Positions 1 through 61,103 of a stretch of 64,000 bases of DNA are shown here, piece by piece. The notes below the pieces were generated by a model. The model ran no database searches and was not told the DNA's origin. It saw nothing but the letters and a program-made list of their open reading frames with translations. This DNA is from Octopus vulgaris (taxonomy: Eukaryota): NCBI GenBank assembly GCA_951406725.2, contig OX597817.1, forward strand, positions 176,452,001 to 176,516,000. Reading direction: 5' to 3'. Numbering within the stretch: the stretch's first letter is position 1; each line of letters begins with the position of its first letter. Made by a program: the position numbers and the translations under genes.

Positions 1-28
1 CACTTTGGAAAGACTTTTTGAACACTGA

Positions 29-333
29 GTCATGCAACCACACTCCAAGTTTTCCAGCTATGCCGAGGTCACGTAGTTTAAGGCATATCATACCATGATC
101 CACCTTGTCAAAAGCTTTTGCAAAATCAAGGTAGATTACGTCCACATTTGATTTGTTGAGTAACTGCCTCAACACCCAGTCATAATGCTGTAAGAGCTGG
201 GTCAGGCAGCTCCTACCTGGTCGGAAACCATGCTAGGTATTACTCAGCAAGTTATTTTCCTCAAGGAATGCGATTAGTCTCTTTCTGACTATCCGTTCCA
301 TGAATTTGCTGATGTGTGAAGTCAGAGAGATAT
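29..333 (-). pseudogene. CR1-group LINE RT fragment (family A), truncated at both ends
   Basis: The minus strand encodes SLTSHISK..., YLDFAKAFDKVDHG. Part of it is the reverse complement of 1346-1492. Confidence 0.85.
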
Positions 334-361
334 GTATATATATATATATATATATATATAT

Positions 362-1327
362 ATTTTAAAAATTGAGGGAGATAAATTAATATTAATTTTA
401 ATATCAATTTAAAACCAGTAGTCCAGCATTCAAAAAATCTGAGGAGTCAGAGAAAATTCAAGTATATGTGTATATTGGCAGGGCTGGCCTGCTAGGTAGC
501 CGGACAGAATACTAGAAGAAGATCATCAACGATCAAACTACAAGGGAAATTCTCTAGAGGAAGAATTCAGCGAACACCAGAACCAACTTTGGCGGGCAGG
601 ACATATGAAAAATTAAATAAATAACAGACTTAAATGCATACCTCGGTTTCGGTCTTAACAAAAGAATTACTTGCATAATTCAAGTGTCCGTGACTTCTTC
701 AGTACATTCGGTCCTCGTGATGCAAACCGCAAGACTAACCCCAGCTCTCTGTGTCAAGACAGACACGTGCTTAGTCTTACTGATTACATCGGGAATAAAA
801 TTTCAAATGTCTTGGTTCTGGCTCGCTGAGAGACTCCTGAAGCGAAGGACTGCAGTGAATAATTCACTGCGGATAGTGCTTACAACTAGGGAACGTATTT
901 ATTTAAATATTTAAAAATTAAGGGAGATAAATGAATATTAATTTTAATATCAATTTAAAACCAGTAGTCCAGCATTCAAAAAATCTGAGGAGTCAGAGAA
1001 AATTCAAATATATGTGTATATTGGCAGGGCTGGCCTCAGGTAGCCGGCCAGAATACTAGAAGAAGATCATCAACGATCAAACTACAAGGGAAATTCTCTA
1101 GAGGAAGAATTCAGTGTTCGCGGAATTCTTCCTCTAGAGAATTTCCCTTGTAGTTTGATCGTTGATGATCTTCTTCTAGTATTCTGGCCGGCTACCTAGC
1201 AGGCCAGCCCTGCCAATATACACATATATTTGAATTTTCTCTGACTCCTCAGATTTTTTGAATGCTGGACTACTGGTTTTAAATTGATATTAAAATTAAT
1301 ATTAATTTATCTCCCTCAATTTTTAAA
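362..1327 (-). mobile_element. Non-coding hammerhead-bearing element (PLE-derived/retrozyme-like): ~547-bp monomer, partial direct repeat and inverted arm
   Basis: 367-572 is repeated at 914-1113, and 1123-1327 is the reverse complement of 362-567. (TA)n lies on both sides, with an HHR at 633-708. Confidence 0.8.
633..708 (-). ncRNA. Type I hammerhead ribozyme motif
   Basis: Minus strand: aatgta CTGAAGA agtc...gacc GAAAC cgag GTA tgcatt (stem I, conserved core, stem II, short stem III, GUA cleavage triplet). Confidence 0.75.
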
Positions 1328-1345
1328 TATATATATATATATATA

Positions 1346-59200: not shown

Positions 59201-59632
59201 TGTTAGTAGTCCTCTGATGTTCAGTAGGAGCATCGCGGTGAGGTGTATGCTGTTGCCGGTGGTGTCCACCTTGGGTCTATTTGCTGTGGTGGTCTTGTGA
59301 ACTGCGGGTAGTCCCATCTGCGAGCTTGAGTTTGATGGAGCCAGGTTAGCTGCTGTACAATCTTTTGTGCCATGCACAAAAAAGATTCTTGTTCAGCAGC
59401 TGCCCTTTCAACAACATGTTGGCGGTTTGTGGCACGCACCACATCTGCGTACCTCCGCTTTGGGACAGGTGGTGCGTGGTCCAGCCCTTTTCCTTTCGGT
59501 GGTTGGTTTCTGCGGCAGGGTCCCGGATGTGCAAAACGGCAGCCTGCACCTTCCTCTCCATGCCAGCAGGCACCTCTCAGGTAGAACCTACACACCCGTG
59601 TGCGCTGCTTGTTTCCATCCTTTTTGTATATG
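56208..59632 (-). mobile_element. CR1-group LINE (family E), decayed, with a CCCH ORF1 remnant
   Basis: ORFs 59221-59748, 58826-59377, 58268-58807, 57113-58231, 56827-57189 and 56316-56867. (AAAATC)n tail. Confidence 0.92.
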
Positions 59633-59977
59633 GATATATATATATAAAATTCTCTGTGGAGAGACTCTTTGAACACTGTATATATATATATATATATATA
59701 TATACATATGTATATATAAAATTCACTGTGGAGAGACTTTTTGAACACTGTCTATATGTATATATATATACATATATATATATATATATATATATATATA
59801 TATATATATATATATATATATATATATATATAATTCACTCTGGAGAGACTTTTTGAACACTGTGCATATATATAAACATATAATTCACTGTGGAGAGACT
59901 TTTTGAACGCTGTGTATATGTATATATATATTTATAAAATGCACTGTTGAGAGACTTATTGAACACTGTATATATAT

Positions 59978-60283
59978 GCCGCGTGCATACGTGCATATGT
60001 ATTTATGTATGGACGTTCGTATATGTAAGTATATCGTTTGTTCTGCATATATATATCTGTATTTATGTACTCTTGATATATTCAACCGATGACGGTAAAG
60101 CTTATTTAAAGCAAAACCAGAAATCCTGGATCTTGAATTATTAAATAATTTTTGCTTGTATATTTTGTCCCTCTGTCTTATCTCATGGTGCGATACGAAC
60201 ACTTAACGTGGTTTTTATAGTCAGAGTTTCGACTGCTATTTCGGCATGTTGGTGTCTCTTAGACACCCTCATTTTTAATTATA
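59978..60283 (+). mobile_element. Short non-coding element with a hammerhead-like motif (60080-60138, U4>C)
   Basis: attcaa CCGATGA cggt...acca GAAA tcc t gga TC ttgaat. The 3' GACTGCTATTTC is shared with the 53076 family. Confidence 0.65.
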
Positions 60284-61103
60284 TATGTATATATATATAT
60301 ATAACATTCACTGTTGAAAGACTTTTTGAACACTGTGTGTATATATATATATATAAAATTCACTGTGTAGAGTCTTTTTGAACACTGTATATATATATAT
60401 ATATATATATATATATATATATATATATATATATATATATATATATATATATATATATAAAATTCACTGTGGAGAGACTTTTTGAACACCGTGTATATAT
60501 ATATATATATATATATATATATATATATATAAAAATTCATTGTTGAGAGACTTTTTGAACCCTGTGTATATATATATATCTATAAAATTTACTGTGGAGA
60601 GATTTTTGAACACTGTGTGTATATATATATATATATGAAATTCACTGTGGAGAAACTTTTTGTATAATGTGTGTGTATATATATATATATATATATATAT
60701 ATATATATATATATATATATATATATATAATATTCACTGTGGAGAGACTTTTTGAACACTGTGTGTATATATATATATATATATATATATATATATAAAT
60801 TTCACTGTGGAGACAATTTTTGAACACTGTCTGTGTATATATATATATAATTCATTGTGGAAAGACTGTTTGAACACTGTATATATATATATATATATAT
60901 ATATAAAATTCTCTGTGGAGAGACTTTTTAAACACTGTGTGTATCTATATATATATATAAAAATTCACTGTGGAGAGACTTATTGAACACTGTATATATA
61001 TATATATATATATATATATATATATATATATATATATATATATATATATATATATATATATATAATTCACTGTGGAGAGACTTTTTGAAAACTGTACATA
61101 TAG

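Follow-up and report, generated by a model that had tools for sequence, protein, structure and literature searches.

A minisatellite resembling a Tc1/mariner-type transposon tip as a probable passive sink for TA-targeting retroelements in Octopus vulgaris

Background

The 64,000-bp stretch of Octopus vulgaris DNA analyzed here (the window; C4:176,452,001–176,516,000, located 218 kb from the contig end in a 2.8-Gb assembly of 227 contigs) consists of a short repeated unit alternating with (TA)n and interspersed with many transposable elements (TEs). A preliminary description of the window compared this architecture to CRISPR arrays and interpreted it as a landing pad for retroelements, which could be a TE trap, a small-RNA memory locus or simply a neutral safe harbour. 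The locus raises two questions: what is the origin of the repeated unit, and why have so many unrelated retroelements accumulated among its copies? In an octopus genome, numerous LINE and Penelope families have been active recently, and 288 TE hotspots are described (PMC13282606).

Results

Extent and composition of the array

The array is real but does not end at positions 1 and 61097, where the preliminary description had placed its limits. Allowing up to 5 edits, 180 units are found over ~91 kb (C4:176,429,148–176,519,894), with 214 kb remaining to the contig end. Fuzzy matching with a single natural unit yielded 152 matches in the window at up to 8 edits; at up to 6 edits there are 148 units, 141 in forward and 7 in inverted orientation (the latter at 20219–20875, 39316–39393 and 42517–42545), and the single orientation reported earlier therefore applies to all but these 7. 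The reversed-pattern control produced no matches genome-wide. The unit is not constant, as had been assumed: 113 distinct cores occur among the 148 units, with a mean of 2.3 edits per 29 bp, or ~8% variation. The (TA)n spacers were described correctly, as the 115 directly adjacent forward pairs are separated by 17–113 bp (median 27) consisting nearly entirely of (TA)n. Without the inserts, the part of the array in the window amounts to ~10.5 kb, of which 48% is TA. Six blocks of units are duplicated within the array. The main features of the array itself are as follows.

1–61097, forward: minisatellite (part in the window), ~33-bp unit, apparently the reverse complement of a Tc1/mariner-type 5′ TIR tip, plus (TA)n
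20330–20875, forward: duplicated unit block, a 293-bp higher-order repeat, with inverted units
52208–52239, forward: reference copy of the unit, from the unit search

The upstream boundary, at about −24000 relative to the window, adjoins a AAAATTTT-rich satellite. This satellite adjoins unit arrays at three sites, and at C4 164.83–164.88 Mb the satellite and the units together form a larger, kb-scale repeat. An IS1595/Merlin-type DDE transposase (L018:7658–8617, forward) is located just upstream of the array or at its start, and two open frames of 1135 and 290 aa (L025:2332–6609, forward) are located ~40 kb downstream; the latter had no Pfam family and only weak NHL-repeat look-alikes from molluscs in the atlas. 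The final 3 kb of the C4 contig contain no telomere repeat, so the array can be called subtelomeric only by presumption. An Rfam search returned no matches. A literature search, mostly of titles and the beginnings of abstracts without supplements, found no description of the array; given that level of search, a published repeat library may already contain the unit.

The unit as a transposon tip

The genome-wide mapping of the unit proposed in the preliminary description gave 21 matches to the exact 29-mer, all on distal C4, and 333 matches at up to 3 mismatches, with single copies on other chromosomes among the 100 matches listed. The exact head-to-tail junction has 4 matches in the genome, on distal C4 only. 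Sister arrays are present on C4 at 164.8 Mb (29 units), 167.0 Mb (12 units) and 171.0–171.1 Mb (9 units). We examined 15 single-copy places, picked by similarity to the unit among the matches listed. One of them is a two-unit mini-array. Each of the remaining 14 forms the end of a larger repeat, with an opposite terminal inverted repeat (TIR) 230–890 bp away in 12 of the 14 loci; the TIR is followed by T in 11 of the 14 and by A in 12. Because the inner bases of the unit match solely the TIR upstream of the transposase start, the unit appears to be the tip of this 5′ TIR read outward and followed by TA, and the array would consist of copies of one end of a dead Tc1/mariner-type transposon. Short head-to-tail units, homology to a dispersed TE and signs of tandem amplification are all present, as in a TE-derived minisatellite. 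Helitron, SINE and tRNA origins of the unit were considered and ruled out by the TIR/TA anatomy.

The parent element has about 1,000 candidate copies in the genome (1,061 in one search; ~1,050 in each search with element bodies). Full copies measure 1.28 kb and are 83–87% identical among the 40 scored of the 1,061 candidates. They combine short TIRs at both ends, flanking TA and a transposase of the HTH plus DDD/E type within ~1.3 kb, and the transposase is broken in all copies viewed. Pfam detected the DUF4817 HTH in 2 of 7 parent pieces and in an additional locus (L127) and found no DDE domain in the transposase pieces; the atlas places the parent transposase next to Tc1-like DDE_3 clusters (0.94–0.95). 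A PDB sequence search with a transposase piece gave 0 matches. In one parent transposase (L128:2073–2672), 38 residues separate the presumed second and third catalytic aspartates. The arrays examined have no parent transposon body next to them, and the founding event is consequently not seen.

The two-unit mini-array (L032, C4:35,571,651) deserves a separate remark. There, flanks that do not belong to an array enclose a truncated B2 LINE end, then (TA)n and then two array units, and the B2 end is 100% identical over 165 bp to a B2 copy in the 167.03-Mb array. The arrangement resembles 3′ transduction; the orientation of the units is opposite to that expected from read-through of the 167.03-Mb B2 copy.

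Inserts in the array

After masking of the array, 31 pieces remain in positions 1–61097, corresponding to 30 inserts because a nested element splits one LINE. They occupy 50,601 of 61,097 bp (83%). The earlier count of about 30 insertions is therefore accurate, and the claim of more than 15 families holds at ≥80% identity (17 groups) and not at ≥65% (15 groups). Insert sizes range from 32 bp (38119–38150) to 7,568 bp, close to the 35 bp to 7.5 kb given previously, with the qualification that the largest insert is a composite. Most inserts are flanked by TA runs on both sides, in agreement with the claim that they lie mostly inside spacers; those adjoining or cutting a unit are the inserts at 28, 42752 and 44155 and the 5′ ends of those at 36827 and 37427. 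The inserts are listed below.

28–2295, forward: LINE A1, 5′-truncated, split by a nested 956-bp palindromic insert (372–1327)
2560–7887, unstranded: 5.3-kb insert with ~1-kb inverted ends (98%) and a low-complexity interior
7955–8570, forward: LINE B2 3′ fragment
9410–10993, reverse: Penelope-like fragment with GIY-YIG (10220–10678) and inverted ends
11244–12122, unstranded: two 385-bp direct repeats, presumably pseudo-LTR-like
12621–20188, reverse: composite with Penelope-like RT (14755–15852) and C-terminal GIY-YIG (13854–14522)
21535–25410, reverse: LINE group C, APE and RT, broken by stops
25824–28409, reverse: LINE A2, young, 99.6% identical to 53946–54481 and up to 100% to outside copies
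28503–30894, unstranded: 491-bp tandem and inverted repeats, presumably pseudo-LTR-like
30919–33926, reverse: LINE B1, 894-aa open APE-RT frame
34130–36333, unstranded: palindromic insert (34130–34776) and a further insert (34924–36333) with an ORF 52% identical to 16609–17142
36827–37861, reverse: two B2 3′ stubs (36827–37218 and 37427–37861) in a duplicated unit block
38119–38150, reverse: 32-bp B2 stub
38440–39255, unstranded: insert related to 34130–34776 and 52547–53049
39436–42497, forward: LINE B1, 98% identical to 30919–33926, between inverted units
42752–43573, presumably reverse: high-copy repeat with 67-bp internal tandem and a tail that we take to be RTE-type
43634–43702, forward: 69-bp LINE A stub
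44155–47267, forward: LINE B2, 998-aa open APE-RT frame
48600–52081, forward: LINE A3, near full length
52547–53778, unstranded: two adjacent non-coding inserts joined by (TA)n, one palindromic (52547–53049), the other at 53078–53778
53946–55836: short inserts, namely A2 stub (53946–54481, reverse), 54594–54897, B1 stub (55054–55337, reverse) and a palindrome (55602–55836)
56209–59624, reverse: LINE A3, 93% identical to 48600–52081
59979–60276, unstranded: 298-bp insert with a relative that adjoins (TA)n elsewhere
~61103–64000, reverse: part of a Ty3/gypsy-type LTR retrotransposon that interrupts the array, whose units continue from window position +67,231

A Pfam survey of 30 ORFs identified APE and/or RT domains in LINE groups A, B and C and RT or GIY-YIG domains in two Penelope-like inserts, and assigned no family to 13 ORFs. 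Groups A and B share 34–40% protein identity; the labels CR1-like and RTE are those we assume for the LINEs. The composite at 12621–20188 also contains a nested second RT (17421–18437) and a 1.4-kb inverted copy that reaches the inverted units at 20219–20298. This inverted copy runs into the flanking units (12123–12612, 20188–20298), which gives rise to inverted units. The insert at 2560–7887 may have a Penelope-like architecture, and its longest ORF contains no Pfam domain. The nested element at 335–1345 shows an inverted duplication of its LINE host, similar to that of the Penelope-like composite. Related ORFs (52%) without a Pfam family are located upstream of the Penelope-like RT (16609–17142) and in a separate insert (34883–35908). 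The B2 stubs at 36827–37218 and 37427–37861, in their duplicated block of units, probably represent a single insertion event. The B1 copy at 39436–42497, between inverted units, suggests a local inversion.

TA targeting in the array and in the genome

The preference of the inserted LINEs for TA was assessed with three 3′-end motifs drawn from the commonest LINE groups of the array, which have 8,807, 11,371 and 3,566 matches genome-wide (23,744 in total). Among 80 LINE ends (the first listed of the 23,744, all on C1), 56 have (TA)4 or longer within 90 bp, compared with 10.5% of 20,000 random positions. Abutment on (TA)n was observed genome-wide for the three motif groups, and for other families in a 600-kb background composed of sixty evenly spaced 10-kb stretches of C1–C6. 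The tested LINE groups are TA-targeters throughout the genome.

The background contains 443 (TA)n tracts of at least 12 bp, which make up 2.8% of its DNA. With motifs and window chosen after the fact, the array has 13 motif hits compared with 2.1–2.5 expected per TA base or tract (5–7-fold) and 0.77 expected per length (~17-fold). Under a matched abutting rule, 11 array ends compare with 1.2–1.5 expected from the plain mean (P < 10−6). As the array exceeds the plain-mean expectations, the concentration of LINEs is real and the portrayal of the array as a landing pad, or neutral safe harbour, is supported.

The per-tract LINE rate increases with the TA density around the tract, between extremes of 0.5-fold and 6.4-fold. 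In the densest bin (more than 200 TA bp in the next 500), there are 13 of 49 TA-abutting ends compared with 35 of 841 background tract-orientations (6.4-fold), and 123 of 132 array tracts belong to this bin. The density-matched expectation is 7.8–9.8 ends compared with 11 observed (P = 0.17–0.39), and at this central estimate the excess of LINEs in the array vanishes against tracts of equal local TA density. The correction is based on 13 events within the first ~20 Mb of C1, and taking the lowest value in its interval (3.4-fold) leaves the array above expectation (P = 0.004–0.02). The TA density beside LINE ends could also be a result of insertion rather than its cause, and later TA growth would inflate the ratio.

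An all-family test was based on an independent 429-kb repeat library, itself rich in the LINE groups of the array; it replaced a first version that was confounded by unit matches. Library repeats abut 45 of 436 tract sides in the array (10%) and 224 of 875 in the background, or 166 of 811 without tracts internal to a presumed SINE (20–26% in the background). This indicates no general excess in the array and not an exact rate, because many background tracts are TE-borne. The abundant repeat with internal (TA)n that we presume to be a SINE accounts for 64 of the 875 background tract sides (background loci L063–L122). Insertion density equal to that of genomic (TA)n, which the preliminary description had named as part of the evidence against its proposal, is thus not found for LINEs relative to the plain mean, in view of the 5–7-fold and ~17-fold excess; it is in the density-matched and all-family comparisons that no excess appears.

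Age and orientation of the inserts

Sequence identity is 99.2% among the three B1 copies in the array and reaches 99.6% between them and copies outside; for two A2 copies, the corresponding values are 99.6% and 100%. Because the array copies match those elsewhere in the genome at least as well as they match one another, the young LINEs represent independent arrivals; the idea that a LINE already resident in the array re-inserted locally was discarded on the same grounds. The same young families inserted 2–3 times, and the young (99%) inserts, at −5429, 25846, 30954, 42438, 53967 and 55097, are spread along the array. LINE orientation is 6 forward to 10 reverse (P = 0.45, small n), with no antisense bias of the kind seen in uni-strand, flamenco-type clusters. 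No positive support emerged for the proposed CRISPR-like memory or TE trap: the unit appears to be one end of a transposon, the inserts comprise both complete and truncated TEs in mixed orientation, and the same young families have inserted repeatedly. As judged from the genome sequence, a role of the array as a germline piRNA source is unlikely.

Discussion

These results lead us to propose that the locus is probably a minisatellite formed from a Tc1/mariner-type end and serving as a passive sink for TA-targeting retroelements. The inserts likely accumulate here because the retroelements favour TA-rich DNA everywhere in the genome, and a host function is not needed to explain the array. The unit corresponds to a TIR tip followed by TA, as in the dispersed copies. 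In the scenario we envisage, the (TA)n could have grown by slippage from the flanking TA target dinucleotide, and the unit with its (TA)n may then have multiplied via slippage or unequal exchange; block duplications and sister arrays on distal C4 are observed. The LINE groups adjoin (TA)n throughout the genome, most strongly in TA-dense surroundings. In an array that is ~48% TA, a neutral build-up of target-primed insertions would have split the spacers and expanded the part in the window from ~10 kb to 61 kb.

Alternatively, the array could attract insertions beyond what its TA content explains, as a genuine hotspot where closely spaced (TA)n tracts are nucleosome-poor or prone to cruciforms and breaks, with no benefit to the host. 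The climb of the per-tract rate with local TA density and the excess remaining at the low end of the interval are in line with this possibility, as is the fact that, within duplicated blocks, the paralogous spacers that follow units 54965 and 59940 independently received different insertions. However, such a hotspot is for the most part the mechanism of the passive sink itself and not peculiar to the array, nothing is left over at the central estimate, and the three sister regions hold just 1, 1 and 0 LINE motif hits. We consider this account unlikely.

A germline-transcribed array could also act as a piRNA source and TE trap, in which TA spacers lure active retroelements whose families are then silenced. 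A locus that is 83% TE in its window part, with 15–17 groups including very young ones, 214 kb from a contig end and with a LINE excess over the genomic mean, is compatible with such a trap, and a Piwi homolog is expressed in octopus (PMC9115989). Like flamenco, the array is a long, TE-dense locus with young insertions; unlike flamenco, it has no antisense bias, and insertions of the same family recur. Antisense TEs are reported to make up 79% of flamenco in D. melanogaster and 50% in D. simulans, where the locus is dual-strand (PMC10495008). Mixed orientation hence counts only against a trap of the uni-strand type, as dual-strand clusters need no orientation bias (PMC10495008). Also against a trap are the independent arrivals of three B1 and three A2 young copies, the 3,566–11,371 ends that each motif group has genome-wide, the TA-dense DNA elsewhere that matches the excess of the array, and a unit that looks like a transposon remnant varying by ~8%. 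Taken together, these observations make a piRNA trap very unlikely. The more specific notion that a dead transposon end with (TA)n constitutes a self-amplifying retroelement bait, since co-opted as a germline piRNA source, strikes us as very improbable as well.

Tc1/mariner elements insert at TA and the unit resembles a TIR tip, but deposition of the units one by one through repeated insertion of TIR stubs into TA, in place of tandem amplification, is scarcely credible in view of the single orientation of 141 of 148 units, the presence of one of the two TIR ends and not both, the duplicated unit blocks and the inability of a single transposon end to transpose.

A passive sink of this kind has partial parallels in known systems. 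Satellites derived from the TIRs of DNA transposons include TIR-220 of Tetris (PMC4079207) and Xstir and miDNA4 of Xenopus (PMC12628747, PMC9659126). As portrayed in these accounts, they have in common with our array a tandem monomer from a DNA-transposon inverted repeat, whereas the monomer here is the outermost ~33 bp with variable (TA)n at the target-site position rather than an internal TIR subrepeat, and the arrays are few and local, on distal C4. The SaTar clusters of guayule and rice link unrelated TEs via (TA)n by target preference (PMC5907723), and the unrelated TEs of the array are likewise strung through (TA)n microsatellites. In contrast to SaTars, characterized there as non-autonomous MULEs that are never nested, the inserts of the array are LINEs, Penelope-like elements and one LTR element, some of them nested, and they sit on a pre-existing minisatellite scaffold. 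A (TA)n bias is described for the Penelope-like Naiads, with a basis proposed for Neptune, as are inverted or tandem structures of Penelope-like elements (PMC8557442). Penelope-like inserts in the array show the same bias and what appear to be tandem or inverted pseudo-LTR structures; the coding copy is not a Naiad because it has a C-terminal GIY-YIG. The resemblance to a CRISPR array is merely the visual alternation of a repeat with other DNA. Near-identical repeats and uniform, unique spacers characterize CRISPR; here the repeats vary by ~8% (113 distinct of 148), the spacers are (TA)n, the inserts cover a 200-fold size range (32–7,568 bp), and the young ones are scattered.

The array provides a worked example of how the relic of one TE seeds a minisatellite that then gathers other TEs. 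It also yields a lead, namely that the LINEs of the array prefer TA-dense neighbourhoods beyond proportion to the number of tracts. As a dated record of active retroelements, the array may supply polymorphic markers. If it did produce piRNAs, it would show how a TE trap with a built-in insertion bias arises, a question that has been modelled in the literature on piRNA traps, and a co-opted source of this kind would sample every TA-targeting family active in the octopus genome.
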